A stretch of 64,000 bases of DNA. It comes from Microgenomates group bacterium ADurb.Bin219 (GTDB taxonomy: Bacteria; Patescibacteriota; Microgenomatia; UM-FILTER-40-11). The notes beneath the pieces are model-generated. The model saw only the letters and a program-made list of their open reading frames with translations. It had not been told where the DNA came from and searched no databases. The translations under genes and the position numbers were made by a program. The stretch is from contig MWCH01000002.1 of assembly GCA_002069945.1 (NCBI GenBank), forward strand, positions 15,164-79,163. Reading direction: 5' to 3'. Shown here piece after piece: positions 2,597 to 23,103 of the stretch. Numbering within the stretch: the stretch's first letter is position 1; each line of letters starts with the position of its first letter.

Positions 2597-3676
2597 TTAT
2601 TCAATGATTTTTGCTTCTCTGCGCCAGTCTTCTTTGATTTGGTTTTGGTCGGCCGTAGTTAAAAAAGTCTGCTGGTTGCCGACGGTCTGCCAAACCAATT
2701 CCCGATGCTTAAAATCCAGTTCGGAAAAAATATCATCCAATAAAAGCAATGGCCGCTCGCCGGTTTTACTTACAATAAAGGCCAATTCGGCCATTTTTAG
2801 CCATAAAACCGCCAACCGCTGCTCCCCCCTAGAACCGTAAGCGGAAAGAGCTTTACCCAAATCTTCTTTACCGGTCAAATCGCCCATTAAAATCTGCCAA
2901 TCGTCCCGGTGCGGGCCGACCAAAGTTGCCGCTGCCGCCACTTCCTCTTCTTTATATTGGTCCAAACGCGCTTCCGAAATAAGGCTTTGGTCATATTCCA
3001 TCTGAAACTGGCAACCAAAAGTCGGTAAACGATAGTTGTTAACCGCCTCAATAAATTCTCGCCTCTTTTGGCCAAGATAGCTGCCGTTTTTTAACAACAA
3101 CTGGTTCCAAAAATACAACTGGCTTCGGGGCGCTCCGGTTTCCCTAATCGCCTCCAAGACTTTATTTCTGGCCCGGAGGCCTTTTTCGTAAGAAAGCAGT
3201 GAACGGCCATATTCAAGATCAATCTGGCATAAAACCAAATCAAAGTATTTTCTTCGCCGGGCCGGCGAATTGGTAATCAGTTGAAGATCTTCGGGTCCAA
3301 AATAAACCGCTTTCAGTTTTCCAGAAAAATCCCCCTGCCTTTTATTGACTCCGTTAACCCGGCAGATTTTTTTGGCAGTTTTTTCCCCGTTGATTTCTCC
3401 TCTGGTTAAAATCAATTCCAACTCTTCTCCGCCGCTTATTTCTCCTTTAACTTTAGCCATCGGTTTTTCGTATCCGATCATTTCGCTTTCCAGATCGGCC
3501 CGAAAACTTCTGACGGTCGCCAAGAGATAAATTGCCTCCAGCAGGTTTGTCTTTCCGGAAGCGTTTGGTCCGATAACCAGATTTATTTTTTCCGAAAAAG
3601 CAAACTCTTTTTTTGAATAGTTCCGGAAATCCTGAAGATGAAGATGCTTTATTATCATATCTGGCAGTTTTCGCAA
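2597..3676 (-). CDS. recF: DNA replication/repair protein RecF
   Basis: N-terminal Walker A GPNASGKTNLLEAIYLL and C-terminal LLLLDDIFSELD signature, ~360 aa. Confidence 0.85.
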   Translation of the reverse strand: MRKLPDMIIKHLHLQDFRNYSKKEFAFSEKINLVIGPNASGKTNLLEAIYLLATVRSFRADLESEMIGYEKPMAKVKGEISGGEELELILTRGEINGEKTAKKICRVNGVNKRQGDFSGKLKAVYFGPEDLQLITNSPARRRKYFDLVLCQIDLEYGRSLLSYEKGLRARNKVLEAIRETGAPRSQLYFWNQLLLKNGSYLGQKRREFIEAVNNYRLPTFGCQFQMEYDQSLISEARLDQYKEEEVAAAATLVGPHRDDWQILMGDLTGKEDLGKALSAYGSRGEQRLAVLWLKMAELAFIVSKTGERPLLLLDDIFSELDFKHRELVWQTVGNQQTFLTTADQNQIKEDWRREAKIIE

Positions 3677-4572
3677 TAAAAAGTTCCTCTTCCACCAACG
3701 GCGATTCTTTTAATTAATCCGCCGCATTGGGGACATTCTTTTCCCTTGCGGCCATAGACTTGCAAAAATTTTTGAAAATTTCCTTTTTCGCCACTGATCT
3801 GCCGATAAGCTTCATCCCTATCCGAAGTCCCTTTATTTTTAATCGCCTCTTTCAATATTCTCAATATCGAATATCTTAATTTCCGAACTTCCTCATCTTC
3901 CAACGAACTCGCCGGCCTGGTAGGCCTAATTCCCGCTTCAAATAAGGCCTCATTTGCGTAAATATTACCAACCCCCGCTAGTTTCTCTTGATCCATAACC
4001 ACCAACTTGATCGGTTTTTTCGACTTGGACAAAACAGTCCTAAAATAATCCAAAGTGAAAGTTTTTTCGTCGTTTGCCTCGGGTCCCAATCTTTCTAAAC
4101 CCAAAGCTTCATCCAATTTTCCGCCCGTTTCCAACTTTTCCCCTTTAACTTTTAATCTTGAATCTATAATTTTTATCCATCCAAACTTTCTTAAATCGTT
4201 AAAATACAATTTGCTGCCGTCATCAAAACCAATAATCACGGTCGTGAATTTATTCGGGAGTTCGCAAACGGCAAAAGGTCCGTCCTTCTGATTACAAAAT
4301 TCCCCCGATTCTGGACTTTCAATCTTTAACTTTTTTCTGAAGATAAGTTGACCGGTCAATTTAAGATGAATTGCCAAGTATTTTGTTGAGGATAATTTAA
4401 GAAGAATAATTTTTGCCCGGCGTGACACCTCCTCAACTCTCAAACCGATAGCTTCATTGGTCAAACCAAGAAAATTTTTGCGGTTAAGAACTTCAATCTG
4501 GGTAATTTTTAGGCCTTTTAGGGCCTGATTCAATTGTTGGGCTATTGTTTCAACTTCAGGAAGCTCCGGCAT
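3655..4572 (-). CDS. mutM: Formamidopyrimidine-DNA glycosylase (Fpg/MutM)
   Basis: N-terminal MPELPEVE, C-terminal zinc finger CPQCGG...CENC; 22-nt overlap with recF suggests co-transcription. Confidence 0.85.
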   Translation of the reverse strand: MPELPEVETIAQQLNQALKGLKITQIEVLNRKNFLGLTNEAIGLRVEEVSRRAKIILLKLSSTKYLAIHLKLTGQLIFRKKLKIESPESGEFCNQKDGPFAVCELPNKFTTVIIGFDDGSKLYFNDLRKFGWIKIIDSRLKVKGEKLETGGKLDEALGLERLGPEANDEKTFTLDYFRTVLSKSKKPIKLVVMDQEKLAGVGNIYANEALFEAGIRPTRPASSLEDEEVRKLRYSILRILKEAIKNKGTSDRDEAYRQISGEKGNFQKFLQVYGRKGKECPQCGGLIKRIAVGGRGTFYCENCQI

Positions 4573-4663
4573 TATTCCTCCTTTATCGGCCCTTGCCCTT
4601 CCGGAACCCTGAGCTTGTCGAAGGACAAAGAAGGGTTTATTTCGGGCAATCCCGGCATTTTTG

Positions 4664-5182
4664 TCAGATGTTTTTCAAAGAAATGAGGCTTTTTTTATTC
4701 CAGTCGTCAATCTTTTTCAACATCAGATAATCGCTGTTGCCAAAATAGCCGCCGGCCATAAAGCCATATTCACGGAAACCGAATTTTTTATAAAATTTAA
4801 GATTCCGGCGAGCACAGCTTAGGGTTAGCATATGACCTTTATTGGCCTTAATCCATCTTTCCCAATAAGATAATAGTTTTCGGCCGACTCCCTGCCGGCG
4901 GTATTCTTTGATCACGATCAGCCAATCGCAATTACTGACTCCGCCGATAATCTTTTGCGCCACCAGCATGCCGAGAACCGTTCCTTGTTCGTTTTTGGCG
5001 ACGAAAATATATTCCTCGCCTTGTTTAATCCAACGAAACAAATTACTCCGGCGATGTCTTTTAATCTGGAAAGAGGCCACTTCGGGAGAATATTCCTTAA
5101 AATCTTCACTGATCGCTTTTTTAAAGATAGCGTAAAAAGCCGCTAAATCGCGTTTTTTTAATTTTTCAATTTTGATTTTCAT
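4664..5182 (-). CDS. GNAT family N-acetyltransferase
   Basis: Acetyl-CoA binding motif region RRQGVGRKLL; paralogous to the ORF at 34814..35320. Confidence 0.65.
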   Translation of the reverse strand: MKIKIEKLKKRDLAAFYAIFKKAISEDFKEYSPEVASFQIKRHRRSNLFRWIKQGEEYIFVAKNEQGTVLGMLVAQKIIGGVSNCDWLIVIKEYRRQGVGRKLLSYWERWIKANKGHMLTLSCARRNLKFYKKFGFREYGFMAGGYFGNSDYLMLKKIDDWNKKSLISLKNI

Positions 5183-5229
5183 CGGAACATCCCCTTATGG
5201 CAGAAATCTTTAACAAGAAGACAACCTCA

Positions 5230-6357
5230 TTATAGCAATTTTTTGAGCGGAAATGAAGTAGCCAGACGAATCTCTTTTAAAAACCGCTCGGAGCCGAATT
5301 TGCTTGCCCGAGAAAGGCAATCTTTTGGTCGGAAACCGGCTTTGGCTTCAATCTTCTCAAACCTTTTAATTGCTTCCTTCAACGAATCGACCGACGGCCG
5401 ATCAAAGAAGATCCCGGTTTTGTTTTCCACTACGGTTTCTCTAACCCCGCCCTGTCTTAGGGCAATCACCGGCTTGCCGGCGGCCATTGCCTCCACCGGC
5501 GCAATACCAAAATCCTCTTCCTCGGCCGGAAAAAGATAAGCACGGCAATTGGCTAAAAGTTCGGCCTTTTGTTCCTCGGTAACTTCACCCAAAAATTGAA
5601 CCAAGGGCCCGGCCATTTGTCTTAACTCTTTTTCGTAACCGGCAAAAGCTCGGCCAAAAATCTTAAGCGGGATATTTAATTCGCTGCAGGCCTTAATCGC
5701 CAGATCGATTCTCTTTGCCCTGGCCAGCCTTCCCCCTGCCAGAAAATAGCGGCCGGCGTCCGACTGGGAAAATCCAAGTTTTACCGGAAGTTCAACCGGC
5801 GGATAAATTACCCTTGCTTCCCGACGATAAAACTTTTTAATCCTAGCCGCTGTATTTTGCGAATTGGCAATAAAATAATCGGTTTTTTGAGCCGAGAGAA
5901 AATCAATCCGCTTTAAAAAACGATTGATAATTTTTGCCGGAAAACGAATCCACCAATGCTTCTGCCAATTTCTTGACGTCGGCAAGCCGTAAAGATATCT
6001 TGGCGGTGTATGACAATAGCAGAAGTGAGTCCCTTTTTTCGTTTTAACCAAATTGGGATTATAAGCGCCGGTAGCCGAAACCATCACTAAATCATAATCG
6101 CTTAAATCCAACCGACTGAAGAGGAGCGGTGCTAAAATCCTCAAAGGACTGATTAATTTTGCCAAAAAAGGAAATTTTGCAGAAATAATCGGTTTTACCG
6201 ACCAGGAAGAAAGCCTTTGTCGGTGAGGACCTAAAAAATCCGGCAAATAAACCAAGGTAAAAATAGGCGCTTCCGGCCAAAGCCGATGAAATTGTTCCAA
6301 TACCCGCTCCGCCCCGCCGTATTCCTTTAAATAATCATGAACTAAGGCAACTTTCAT
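5230..6357 (-). CDS. Glycosyltransferase family 4 (GT-B fold)
   Basis: C-terminal GT4 signature EDFGIAPVEAMAAGKPVIA. Confidence 0.75.
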   Translation of the reverse strand: MKVALVHDYLKEYGGAERVLEQFHRLWPEAPIFTLVYLPDFLGPHRQRLSSWSVKPIISAKFPFLAKLISPLRILAPLLFSRLDLSDYDLVMVSATGAYNPNLVKTKKGTHFCYCHTPPRYLYGLPTSRNWQKHWWIRFPAKIINRFLKRIDFLSAQKTDYFIANSQNTAARIKKFYRREARVIYPPVELPVKLGFSQSDAGRYFLAGGRLARAKRIDLAIKACSELNIPLKIFGRAFAGYEKELRQMAGPLVQFLGEVTEEQKAELLANCRAYLFPAEEEDFGIAPVEAMAAGKPVIALRQGGVRETVVENKTGIFFDRPSVDSLKEAIKRFEKIEAKAGFRPKDCLSRASKFGSERFLKEIRLATSFPLKKLL

Positions 6358-6365
6358 TCTTGTTG

Positions 6366-7352
6366 TTAAAATAACCTTTCCTGCCCACTTTCCTCGGGAG
6401 TTTTTTTCTTTTTTCTTTCTTTTTTTTTCTCTTCCCTGCCGGCAATTCTGGAAATCAAAGACTTAAATCCAAGTTCTCTCAAACATTCAATCGCTTCCGG
6501 CCGGTTAAAATCCTTAAGTACAGCTTCTTCTAATTTTAAGTCAACCGGAGCCTCCGTTACCACCGTCGCCAATTTTTGCGACAAAAAAGCGCTTTCCTTG
6601 CCGTCTGCTAATTTTTTGGCCAAAACGGGAGAACTGATCGCTGGCAATGAATGGTAAATATTGGCCAATGTTTTAAATTTTTGCAAAAGATCAATTGCTC
6701 CCTTGGGACCGATGCCCGGAACTCCGGGATAATTGTCGGAAGGATCGCCGACTAAAGCCTTATAATCAACAATTTGCTCCGGTTTAATGCCCATTTTTTC
6801 AAACACTTCTTTTTCGCCAAAAATCTGGGCTTCGGATAAGCCCTTAACCGGCATAAAAAGTTTGACCTTCTCGTTCACCAGTTGGAAAAGATCTTTGTCC
6901 CCGGTAACGATAACAACCTCCAAATTTAAGTTTTGATTTTTTGTTTCCCGATCGGATTTACCCTCGTTACCTTGTCGGAGGGCTTGCTTGACCAAGGTTC
7001 CGATAATGTCATCTGCTTCAAAACCAGGAGCCTCGTAAGAAGGAATTCCCAAAGCTTTTACCAAAAAATGAACTTTTTCCACTTGGGAGAAAAGCTCTTG
7101 GTCTGTTTCCGGCCTTTGCGATTGATAACCGATAAACAAATCGTGGCGAAAGGTCGTTTCCGGCGTATCAAAAGCAGCCGCCAAATACTTCGGCTGTAAA
7201 TCGGCCACAACCTTAAGCAAAATTGAGCAATAGCCGTAAACCGCGTTGGTCAATTCCCCGGAACGATTGGTTAAGGGCGGCAAGGCGTGATAGGCCCGAT
7301 GTAAAATCGCATAGCTATCAATTAAAATTAATTTATCCGTCATTGAAGCCAT
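6366..7352 (-). CDS. 5'-3' exonuclease / flap endonuclease (Pol I N-terminal domain-like)
   Basis: N-terminal LILIDSYAILHRAYHA and acidic metal-binding clusters; Lys-rich C-terminal tail. Confidence 0.8.
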   Translation of the reverse strand: MASMTDKLILIDSYAILHRAYHALPPLTNRSGELTNAVYGYCSILLKVVADLQPKYLAAAFDTPETTFRHDLFIGYQSQRPETDQELFSQVEKVHFLVKALGIPSYEAPGFEADDIIGTLVKQALRQGNEGKSDRETKNQNLNLEVVIVTGDKDLFQLVNEKVKLFMPVKGLSEAQIFGEKEVFEKMGIKPEQIVDYKALVGDPSDNYPGVPGIGPKGAIDLLQKFKTLANIYHSLPAISSPVLAKKLADGKESAFLSQKLATVVTEAPVDLKLEEAVLKDFNRPEAIECLRELGFKSLISRIAGREEKKKERKKKKTPEESGQERLF

Positions 7353-19684: not shown

Positions 19685-19724
19685 GGAGAGATTAAAAAAA
19701 CCGACCGGAAAAATTAATCTCCCC
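19685..19724. terminator. Hairpin (GGAGAGATTAA / TTAATCTCCCC) overlapping the nrdG stop codon
   Basis: 11-bp inverted repeat with one mismatch and an 18-nt loop; read directly. Confidence 0.35.
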
Positions 19725-20448
19725 TAATTTCAGCCGTAGGAATAATTTTTTGGACAATTTTCAAAGATTGCTTTAACTCTCCGGACGTAAACGGTTTCAG
19801 CTCACTAAACCGAAGATCCAAACAATTAGTCGGTCGGAAGTTCTGCAAAACCCAACGATAATTTACAATTTTTAATTTACAATTTTCAATTAAAGATCTT
19901 ATCTCGCCCGCCATTTGAATTAAAATCTTTTCATTGTGCAACCCCGGCACGACCGTGGTCCGAAACTCACAACCTATACCACTTTTTAAAATCAATTCCA
20001 TTGAAGATTTAACATTTGACATTTGACATTTGACATTGATGAAATTTTGATAATTATCAAAATTTCCCTTGTAATCCATGGCTACAAAATCAATTAATCC
20101 GTCTTTCAGTAATCGGGTGATTGTTTCCGGCTTGCTCCCGTTGGTTTCAATCATTGTCAAAAAACCCATTTTTTTAAGCTCTTTTAAAAAACCGGCCAAC
20201 TCCGGCTGCAGGGTCGGTTCCCCTCCGGTAACGACAATGGCATCAACCCATTTTTGCCTTTTTTTCAGGTCGGCGAAAATTTCCCCTTCTTCAAAGAAGG
20301 TCAGCTTAGGCTGCTTTTGGGGATCGGACAAGTCGGAGTTGTGACAAAACGGGCAACGGAAATTACAACCGGGAACAAAAATCACCGCCGCAATTTTTCC
20401 CGGCCACTCAATTAAGGAAGTTTTAAGATAGCCGGCTATTTGAACCAT
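19714..20448 (-). CDS. nrdG: Anaerobic ribonucleoside-triphosphate reductase activating protein (radical SAM)
   Basis: CNFRCPFCHN radical-SAM CxxxCxxC cluster near the N-terminus, 244 aa; sits downstream of nrdD. Confidence 0.8.
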   Translation of the reverse strand: MVQIAGYLKTSLIEWPGKIAAVIFVPGCNFRCPFCHNSDLSDPQKQPKLTFFEEGEIFADLKKRQKWVDAIVVTGGEPTLQPELAGFLKELKKMGFLTMIETNGSKPETITRLLKDGLIDFVAMDYKGNFDNYQNFINVKCQMSNVKSSMELILKSGIGCEFRTTVVPGLHNEKILIQMAGEIRSLIENCKLKIVNYRWVLQNFRPTNCLDLRFSELKPFTSGELKQSLKIVQKIIPTAEIRGD

Positions 20449-20592: not shown

Positions 20593-20736
20593 TCATTTTT
20601 TGCCAATAATGTAGGTCTTTCTCTGTTCAAACTCCTGCTGTTTGCCGTCATTCCATTGCGATATCGGTCGGAGATAGCCGACAATACGGGAAAAAATCTC
20701 ACAGGGTTGCCTTTTAAGAATTTTGGTTTGGTCCAT
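20593..20736 (-). CDS. 47-aa stand-alone peptide corresponding to the NrdD C-terminal glycyl-radical tail
   Basis: Not in ORF track (<60 aa). MDQTKILKRQPCEIFSRIVGYLRPISQWNDGKQQEFEQRKTYIIGKK carries the class III RNR glycyl-radical signature RxxGYL...WNxGKxxExxxR. Strong RBS AAAAAGGGAGGTTGT-ATG; lies 72 nt after the nrdD stop. Confidence 0.55.
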   Translation of the reverse strand: MDQTKILKRQPCEIFSRIVGYLRPISQWNDGKQQEFEQRKTYIIGKK

Positions 20737-20808
20737 ACAACCTCCCTTTTTACTTAATTAAAAAATAATCTTTATTTTTTACCCCGTCTCTATCTCTATC
20801 TCTTACTT

Positions 20809-23013
20809 TTACTCTATCTCCACCCGGTATCCTTCTTTCTCCAATTCTTTCTTTTGTCTGATTAGATCTTCGTCACATTTGGGACAAAAACTAAAACCAC
20901 CCTTAAGATACCCGTGACGGGGACAGATACTGAAAGTCGGCGTCAGGGTAAAATAAGGCAAATGAAAATTTTCGGCGATCTTTTTAACCGCCGTTTTGAC
21001 CGTTTGGATATCGGAAAGGCTTTCTCCTAAAAAACCATGCAAAACCGTTCCTCCGGTATATTGGCATTGAAGTTCATCCTGATGTTCCAAGGCTTCAAAA
21101 ATATCGGCAGTATAATCAACCGGCAAATGAGTTGAATTGGTATAATACGGTTCTGCTTTTTTCTCCTTAACCGCCCGGTTGTTGGCAAAAATTATCTCCG
21201 GATAACGTTTCCGATCCTCGCGGGCAAAACGATAAGAAGTTCCCTCGGCCGGAGTTGCTTCCAAATTAAAAAGCTGGCCGGTTTCTTCTTGATAACGACC
21301 GATTCTCTCCCTCATAAATTTCAAAACTTTCAAGGCAAAGCTGCGTCCTTTTTTGGTCGCGATGTTTTCCCCCAAAAGATTTAAACAGGCTTCGTTCATA
21401 CCCACTAAACCGATGGTGTTGAAATGGTTTTTCCAATATTCGCCGAAGCGCTCTTTGATTGGCGTCAAAAAAACCTGGGAATAGGGATAAAGTCCTTTTC
21501 CGGTAAAATCTTCAACCACTTTTCTTTTGATCATCAAGCTTTCCTTGGCCAAATCCATCATTGCGGCCAGATTTTGAAAAAAATCCTTTTCTTTCTTGGC
21601 CAAAAAACCAAGTCTCGGTAAATTAATCGTCACTACCCCAACGGCTCCGGTCAAAGGATTGGCGCCAAAAAGTCCGCCGCCTTTTTTCCTCAATTCCCGA
21701 TTGTCCAAGCGCAATCGGCAACACATACTGCGCGCGTCTTCGGGGCTCATATCGGAATTAATAAAATTGGAAAAATAAGGAATGCCGTATTTTCGGGTTG
21801 CTTCCCAAAGATTTTCCAAATCCGGATTGTCCCAATCGAAATCCTTGGTGATATTAATGGTCGGGATCGGGAAAGAAAAAACCCGGCCCTGGGCGTCGCC
21901 TTCCAACAAAACCTCGCCAAAAGCACGGTTAAAAAGATTCATTTCTTTTTGAAAATCACCATAGGTCTTTTTTTGCGGCTGGCCGCCGACAATGACCGAT
22001 TCTTTCGCCATCATCTTTGGAACCTTCAAGTCCAAAGTCACGTTGGAAAAAGGCGTTTGAAAACCGACCCGGGTCGGCACGTTCATATTAAACATGAACT
22101 CCTGCAAGGCCTGTTTGACCTCAAGATAATCCAATTTGTCGTAATAAATAAACGGCGCCAATAAGGTATCAAAATTTGAAACCGCCTGAGCTCCGGCCGT
22201 TTCTCCCTGAAGGGTATAAATTAAATTAACCAATTGGCCGAGCGCGGTCCGAAAATGTTTTGGTGGACGTGAATTCAGTTTTCCGGAAACGCCGCCGAAA
22301 CCTTTGACTAAAAACTCGCGCAAATCCCATCCGCAACAGTAAGCCGCCAAAATCGCCAGGTCGTGGAGATGTAAGTCGCCGTTTAAATGAGCATCCCCAA
22401 TCTTCTTAGGATATATTTGATTTAGCCAGAAATTTGAAGAAACCAAGCTGGCCACGTGGTTATTCAACCCCTGGAGAGAAAAAGTCATATTACTGTTTTC
22501 CTTAACCCGCCAATCCAGCTTTCCCAAATAGTTTTTAATCAGCTCGTCCGAATCCACCAGGCTTTCAATGCTTCTGATTTTGTTATGCAGCTCCCGGTAA
22601 AGAATATAAGCTTTAGAAACCGCCACCAGCCGATTTTTAATCAGAACCTCTTCAACAATATCCTGAATCTGTTCTACCCCGGGAATTAAATGACCGTCAA
22701 AGCGCCGATCGAGGATTTTACTGACCTCAAGTGCCATTTGCCTGGCTTTCGGCAAATCCACCTCTCCCACCGCCCACATTGCTTTGGAAATGGCAATAAA
22801 AATTTTTTTCCGGTCAAAATCAACAATCCGACCGTCCCTTTTGCAAATTTGTCTCACTGGTCGGGAAATCTTATTTGCCGTCTCGTTTAGTTTTGATTTA
22901 TTTTTAAAACTATTTTTCATCATTCTCCACAAAAAAACCTGCCCCTGTATCTTTTGTGAAGATATTATCACTCTTCCCCACTGAAGCCTGTCAACCGGTA
23001 ATTTTAATATCAA
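20809..23013 (-). CDS. nrdD: Anaerobic ribonucleoside-triphosphate reductase large subunit (class III), lacking its own glycyl-radical tail
   Basis: N-terminal ATP-cone (RDGRIVDFDRKKIFIAISKA), large NrdD body, C-terminal Zn-ribbon-like TPTFSICPRHGYLKGGFSFCPKC. Ends ~20 aa after the ribbon with no RVxGYL motif. Confidence 0.8.
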   Translation of the reverse strand: MILKLPVDRLQWGRVIISSQKIQGQVFLWRMMKNSFKNKSKLNETANKISRPVRQICKRDGRIVDFDRKKIFIAISKAMWAVGEVDLPKARQMALEVSKILDRRFDGHLIPGVEQIQDIVEEVLIKNRLVAVSKAYILYRELHNKIRSIESLVDSDELIKNYLGKLDWRVKENSNMTFSLQGLNNHVASLVSSNFWLNQIYPKKIGDAHLNGDLHLHDLAILAAYCCGWDLREFLVKGFGGVSGKLNSRPPKHFRTALGQLVNLIYTLQGETAGAQAVSNFDTLLAPFIYYDKLDYLEVKQALQEFMFNMNVPTRVGFQTPFSNVTLDLKVPKMMAKESVIVGGQPQKKTYGDFQKEMNLFNRAFGEVLLEGDAQGRVFSFPIPTINITKDFDWDNPDLENLWEATRKYGIPYFSNFINSDMSPEDARSMCCRLRLDNRELRKKGGGLFGANPLTGAVGVVTINLPRLGFLAKKEKDFFQNLAAMMDLAKESLMIKRKVVEDFTGKGLYPYSQVFLTPIKERFGEYWKNHFNTIGLVGMNEACLNLLGENIATKKGRSFALKVLKFMRERIGRYQEETGQLFNLEATPAEGTSYRFAREDRKRYPEIIFANNRAVKEKKAEPYYTNSTHLPVDYTADIFEALEHQDELQCQYTGGTVLHGFLGESLSDIQTVKTAVKKIAENFHLPYFTLTPTFSICPRHGYLKGGFSFCPKCDEDLIRQKKELEKEGYRVEIE

Positions 23014-23103
23014 AAGATATCAGCTCAAGGCCGGGCAAACCACAAAAAAATTTTTGCCGATATTTTGGGCAAAAACTTAAGAATAAATTTTCTCCCCAAT
23101 TCC

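Follow-up and report, generated by a model that had tools for sequence, protein, structure and literature searches.

In the window, i.e., the whole stretch of 64,000 nt analysed here and to which all positions refer, a class III ribonucleotide reductase (RNR) locus was found on the minus strand, with the following features, given from upstream to downstream:

23001..23028, minus strand: promoter-like TTGAGC-16-TAAAAT, overlapping the TTG of the maximal nrdD-L ORF; not above shuffle expectation
20809-23013, minus strand: maximal nrdD-L ORF, TTG start, 734 codons; alternative ATG at 22923 (704 aa)
~22994-22964, minus strand: second promoter-like sequence, TTGACA...TGATAAT, weak and bearing only on the choice of ATG
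20809..22920, minus strand: nrdD-L, class III RNR large subunit, 703 aa plus TAA stop
21715..21726, minus strand: finger-loop motif M399-C400-C401-R402, of the double-cysteine type, the expected thiyl-radical site
20875..20925, minus strand: zinc-ribbon segment C666-x2-H669 ... C679-x2-C682, read from the sequence
20812..20874, minus strand: C-terminal extension of nrdD-L, 21 residues, DEDLIRQKKELEKEGYRVEIE, specific to the split form
20737..20808, minus strand: intercistronic spacer, 72 nt, AT-rich, in frame with nrdD-L and with a low-complexity (TAGAGA)n run
20741-20746, minus strand: Shine-Dalgarno sequence GGGAGG, 4 nt before the nrdD-S ATG
20593..20736, minus strand: nrdD-S, 47-aa glycyl-radical subunit, MDQTKILKRQPCEIFSRIVGYLRPISQWNDGKQQEFEQRKTYIIGKK, ATG at 20736
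20677..20679, minus strand: GGC codon of Gly20 in the RIVGY motif, the predicted radical site
19714..20448, minus strand: nrdG, radical-SAM activase, 244 aa, starting 144 nt downstream of nrdD-S

The locus is very probably a three-gene operon (nrdD-L, nrdD-S, nrdG) in which the catalytic subunit is naturally split just past the zinc ribbon. The translation start of nrdD-L is probably ATG 22920 or 22923, giving a product of 703/704 aa, as public gene callers use the ATG, a GGAGA precedes it closely, and the longer ORF begins at a TTG that overlaps promoter-like hexamers. The identical 703-aa protein is annotated in public assemblies, while an exact look-up of the 734-aa version returned no record because the gene callers begin at the ATG. 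NrdG matched the NrdG2 model TIGR02495 with 185.9 bits (cut-off 131), as well as the Pfam families Radical_SAM and Fer4_12. The spacer has a GC content of ~31%, against ~43% in the genes, and no ORF, mobile element, or Rfam family match was found in it. A promoter and terminator scan of the operon gave nothing above chance, with no terminator-like site in the spacer.

The large subunit, NrdD-L, includes an ATP-cone, a catalytic barrel, an MCCR finger loop, and a Cys/His zinc ribbon. In Pfam it matched PF03477 and positions 1-529 of the 562 of PF13597 (NRDD; E 6.8e-180), where a score of 599.9 bits (cut-off 26.2) confirmed its homology to the class III RNR barrel, and it also matched the NCBIfam model NF006126 with 1020 bits (cut-off 548, positions 3-657 of 684). 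The finger loop, SMCCRLRL at residues 398-405, is invariant across the aligned tail-less and fused homologs, the corresponding motif classes (MGCR or MCCR) having been defined previously (PMC9669993). The predicted zinc ligands C666, H669, C679, and C682 are invariant among 72 homologs, and the catalytic motifs are likewise invariant across the tail-less NrdD homologs; the large subunit is intact. Its C-terminus reads ...TPTFSICPRHGYLKGGFSFCPKC followed by DEDLIRQKKELEKEGYRVEIE and TAA, so that the stop falls 21 residues past C682, and no RxxGY glycyl-radical motif was found on this polypeptide, either in the sequence or through Pfam. After the zinc ribbon, the large subunit carries a split-specific C-D-x-E-(I/M)-G-Y motif or helical extension, D683 being invariant, and a helix was predicted by AlphaFold2 at residues 680-695 with moderate confidence.

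What is missing from NrdD-L was found in the small product, NrdD-S, which carries a glycine loop (RIVG20Y) and the C-terminal tail WNDGKQQEF. It matched positions 531-562 of the 562 of PF13597 (E 2.9e-10) and 550-580 of the 581 of TIGR02487, and it aligned with the last 34 residues of the Prevotella copri NrdD 8P23, the radical glycine included. The two ORFs are thus complementary, with NRDD positions 1-529 on one and 531-562 on the other and nothing missing. Apart from PF13597, no Pfam family matched NrdD-S at E <= 0.1, and no NCBIfam or PHROG family did so beyond the NrdD models. These results bear out the earlier note, which had read from the sequence an NrdD ORF ending about 20 residues past its zinc ribbon without a glycyl motif, then a 72-nt AT-rich spacer with a GGGAGG ribosome-binding site, and then a 47-codon ORF encoding the NrdD glycyl-radical tail. 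The 47-aa gene is called in public annotations, and the exact protein is present on at least 22 contigs. Among 40 stand-alone homologs, the G20 column is invariant, as are S-R-I-V-G-Y, W, and K. Across 46 tail genes, codon positions 1 and 2 are 78% identical against 39% for position 3, and the median dN/dS of 0.22 denotes purifying selection. Two other ideas on this peptide were considered: that its Cys12 completes the zinc site, which was rejected as many fused enzymes with four ligands have the same Cys, and a split intein or trans-splicing, unlikely with ~11 residues before the conserved core of NrdD-S and no intein match. Inteins do occur in some homologs, at other places of the protein, and those homologs are tail-less too.

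The split nrdD is a conserved architecture, under selection and of broad distribution. Of the 120 NrdD protein clusters closest to NrdD-L (63-100% identity), 101 are tail-less, and the 80 nearest species-representative loci include 45 split and 35 fused ones, the former in CPR phyla, DPANN archaea, Desulfurellales, Halobacteroidaceae, and the cultured Orenia metallireducens. The split is the majority architecture among the closest relatives of this NrdD and not a peculiarity of a single locus, as the earlier note could be read; the comparison with related loci that it had proposed gave the same split in more than half of them. The tail product ranges from 39 to 58 aa at 43 of the 45 split loci and has ~95 aa at the other two, every tail ORF has its own ATG, and about half of these small ORFs are preceded by a GGAGG site. 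The distance from nrdD to the tail ranges from a 37-nt overlap to a 968-nt gap, and the two are in frame in 14 of the 45, which is the chance level. Gene order also varies: in Orenia metallireducens MSL40 (NZ_PVNB01000001.1, locus L087) it is nrdD-nrdG-tail, with nrdG (5541-6233 of that locus) between the two pieces (nrdD 3492-5525, tail 6240-6395), and at another locus (L012) a flavin reductase gene lies between nrdD and the tail ORF. The split nrdD also occurs in complete or near-complete genomes, such as GCA_035343655.1 and GCA_029557495.1. A profile search against 1.84 billion representatives returned 2515 matches at E <= 1e-10; 147 of the best 150 were 49-166 aa long, and among 140 newly returned short matches, 133 begin with Met and one was a fragment of a fused gene. 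Fused relatives have a fixed 11-12 residues between the last zinc ligand and the glycyl-radical motif. In a neighbour-joining tree, calculated with no support values, fused genes are nested among split ones, and in such nested genes the linker is still long and may even contain a relic Met, e.g., in L022 (CPKCDEDDMSPQKLERQKCEVYSR), from which it follows that the split and fused states interconvert without gene loss.

Stand-alone tails were also found in viruses. In ~65 of the best 80 IMG/VR loci, the tail ORF is alone, neither nrdD nor nrdG occurring within 4 kb, and these lone ORFs lie among bona fide phage gene sets. Some of the lone phage copies carry a zinc ribbon of their own, such as AJP62049.1 of ANMV-1, which consists of a zinc ribbon plus the tail; among GenBank phages, the stand-alone domain was found only in this uncultured ANMV-1 virus. 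Matches in the Methanobacterium virus PhiF1 and in fecal phages belong to ordinary fused NrdDs. The lone phage copies suggest that the small subunit can function in trans, together with a large subunit whose gene lies elsewhere. A lone tail gene with no nearby nrdD was also seen in an Anaerolineae MAG (L011).

From these sequence data, we consider it highly probable that the locus encodes a two-subunit class III RNR, in which the radical glycine resides on a separate, possibly replaceable, mini-subunit. Among the alternatives, the small protein could serve a full-length NrdD encoded elsewhere, as a spare part in the manner of GrcA or by regulating NrdG or acting as its decoy, with the large ORF inactive or dedicated to another role. 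The lone tail genes of phages and of the Anaerolineae MAG would fit such a role, and the genome is seen here through a 64-kb window; however, no second nrdD was found within that window, and in these lineages no NrdD is better conserved than the tail-less large subunit, which keeps all the catalytic motifs. Moreover, a tail gene lies near every tail-less nrdD (no exception among the 80 nearest species-level loci) and no extra one was found within 3.5 kb at the 35 fused loci, which is the pattern expected of obligate partners and makes this alternative improbable. As the large subunit is genetically tail-less, NrdD-S would be an obligate subunit and not merely a spare part.

Recoding of the two ORFs into a single fused NrdD, through stop read-through, frameshifting, or a ribosomal bypass like that of T4 gene 60, is more improbable still. 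The spacer length is a multiple of 3 in this genome, and a single in-frame stop separates the ORFs in the relatives L040, L047, L053, L056, L067, and L068, which would favour it, but read-through at the present locus would have to pass four stops, and a GAG take-off/landing pair, checked by eye, lands out of frame. Neither would recoding account for the chance-level frame relation in the relatives, for their overlaps of up to 37 nt or the entire genes intervening between the pieces, or for tail ORFs with their own ATG and often a Shine-Dalgarno site, and the spacer matched no RNA family or structured element. Finally, a recent frameshift, nonsense mutation, or assembly error, or a dying nrdD with a leftover 3' ORF, for which the shared frame of two ORFs only 72 nt apart and the low-complexity spacer could be invoked, deserves almost no credence, given that with four in-frame stops, counting the nrdD stop region, it would take more than one indel or base error to join the ORFs, that the 460-nt junction is identical or differs by one SNP in 10 independently assembled contigs (NCBI, JGI, ENA, Logan), that 45 of the 80 nearest species share the architecture with different spacers, frames, and gene orders, that a dN/dS of ~0.22 is not the neutral evolution of a small ORF, and that no disabling changes were seen in the large ORF, whose catalytic residues are invariant. 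Neither a sequencing error nor pseudogenisation accounts for the split. The pseudogene alternative of the earlier note falls with the independent assemblies, the conservation across phyla, and the dN/dS values, and the two observations that it had named as fatal to its reading were not made: the Pfam match of the large ORF stops at position 529 of 562, short of the glycyl-radical region, and the spacer does not reduce to an error hiding one continuous frame. Its main proposal, a glycyl-radical element made as an independent small protein, is upheld by a split that is reproducible, conserved across phyla, variable in spacing, frame, and order, and maintained by purifying selection.

In the two-subunit enzyme that we propose, NrdD-L would supply the ATP-cone, the barrel with its cysteine finger loop, and the zinc ribbon, and NrdD-S the glycine loop and the C-terminal tail. 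NrdD-S would be translated from its own ribosome-binding site, its Gly20 would then be converted to a glycyl radical by NrdG, on the free peptide or on the complex, and the loop would be held non-covalently in the barrel beside Cys400/401, as the attached loop of an ordinary NrdD is, for catalysis to start. We infer in this way the assembly, the activation in trans, the exchangeability of the peptide, and its selective advantage. Structure prediction with AlphaFold2 on the concatenated large and small subunits, with 31 alignment rows including fused homologs, gave a mean pLDDT of 66.5, with the tail below 50; in the MAFFT alignment, the tails of the fused and small proteins lay over the extension of the large subunit, which left the query tail with no aligned homologs. 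With 72 rows of tail-less homologs only, the barrel improved (pLDDT 76, pTM 0.71), the tail, again with no aligned homologs, staying below 50 and undocked in both runs.

Glycyl-radical proteins are cut by oxygen at the glycine. It follows that in the split enzyme the damage would be confined to a peptide of 47 residues, whose exchange could re-arm the enzyme, an advantage through repair that we put forward as pure conjecture. A broader proposal is that this is a second widespread class III RNR architecture, based on an exchangeable 'radical cartridge' of 40-60 residues, with re-arming by peptide swap and cartridges encoded by phages, to which we would give somewhat less than an even chance. 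If true, anaerobes with minimal genomes (CPR, DPANN) would re-arm their oxygen-hit enzyme through a peptide swap, and phages would inject cartridges of their own, as a bare tail or as a zinc ribbon plus tail, seizing or boosting the host NrdD; it would also be without precedent twice over, as a glycyl-radical enzyme whose radical subunit works obligately in trans and as a spare-part system beyond the formate lyases.

With a natural two-piece NrdD, supply of the glycine loop by a separate protein would be the ordinary condition of an essential enzyme. Such an NrdD would offer a minimal 5-kDa substrate to study how activases recognise and radicalise the loop, and a test system for the departure of the glycyl-radical domain from the barrel and its re-entry, experimentally accessible in the cultured Orenia metallireducens. 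It suggests how CPR and DPANN organisms might keep oxygen-sensitive dNTP synthesis cheap to repair, and its parallel to the organisation of class I enzymes into catalytic and radical subunits is relevant to models of how RNRs evolved. Phage copies of the tail alone would represent a new kind of auxiliary metabolic gene. In addition, such small ORFs are easily overlooked or tagged as NrdD fragments, so tail-less NrdDs may be scored as pseudogenes or truncated genes in metabolic reconstructions.

No description of a split NrdD or of an NrdD spare part was found in the full-text literature accessible without subscription. By sequence, the split form belongs to the same family as the canonical NrdD/NrdG systems of E. 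coli, T4, Thermotoga maritima, and Prevotella copri (8P23), with which it shares the ATP-cone, the barrel, MCCR, the zinc ribbon, the RxxGY loop, and the WNxGK tail, as well as an adjacent activase of the NrdG2 type. In the Prevotella enzyme, PcNrdD, the zinc site is followed by a buried Gly loop and a surface tail (PMC11226230). Compared with PcNrdD, the break in the split form falls exactly between the zinc site and the Gly loop. All characterised NrdDs have the radical glycine within the one polypeptide, whereas here it is on a separate 47-aa product; to our knowledge, every characterised glycyl-radical enzyme has it on the catalytic polypeptide.

Autonomous glycyl-radical cofactors are represented by GrcA/YfiD of E. 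coli and Y06I of phage T4, both of them serving pyruvate formate-lyase (PFL). Like NrdD-S, GrcA is a small stand-alone protein with a glycyl-radical loop, presumably activated by the activase of the enzyme itself and completing a barrel whose own loop is not functional or is missing, and phage-encoded versions are known for both types. However, GrcA has 127 aa and is homologous to the PFL C-terminus, whereas the 47 aa of NrdD-S are homologous only to the NrdD tail, with no match to the PFL glycine-radical domain PF01228 found in Pfam at E <= 0.1; furthermore, GrcA rescues a full-length enzyme after oxygen cleavage, whereas the partner of NrdD-S is genetically truncated, which would make NrdD-S a constitutive as well as an obligate component. 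The likeness to GrcA/YfiD drawn in the earlier note is therefore apt as an analogy but does not extend to homology, nor to the role of a mere spare. Formate lyases were described in a 2026 review as the sole class of glycyl-radical enzymes with known spare-part proteins (PMC13450708).

In the split NrdD, the catalytic subunit is encoded by two ORFs, both of them conserved. Split RNR genes have other precedents, such as the NrdA of Aeromonas phage Aeh1, interrupted by a homing endonuclease gene. In Pseudomonas aeruginosa, NrdJa and NrdJb are likewise split RNR genes, according to what is related in PMC9669993 of Crona et al. 2015. As in the split NrdD, the catalytic subunit is made in these cases from two ORFs and requires non-covalent assembly, but they belong to other RNR classes, break at other positions into large fragments, and do not separate the radical cofactor; in addition, the Aeh1 split came from a mobile endonuclease gene, whereas the 72-nt NrdD spacer holds no ORF or mobile element. 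Finally, class I NrdA/NrdB offers a functional analogy only, the stable radical being stored on one chain for use by a catalytic cysteine on a second one. NrdB belongs to the di-metal ferritin-like proteins, works with a tyrosyl radical or a metal oxidant, and has no homology with the 47-aa glycine peptide, and class I enzymes rely on long-range radical transfer, whereas the loop of the split NrdD would be expected to sit directly in the barrel.

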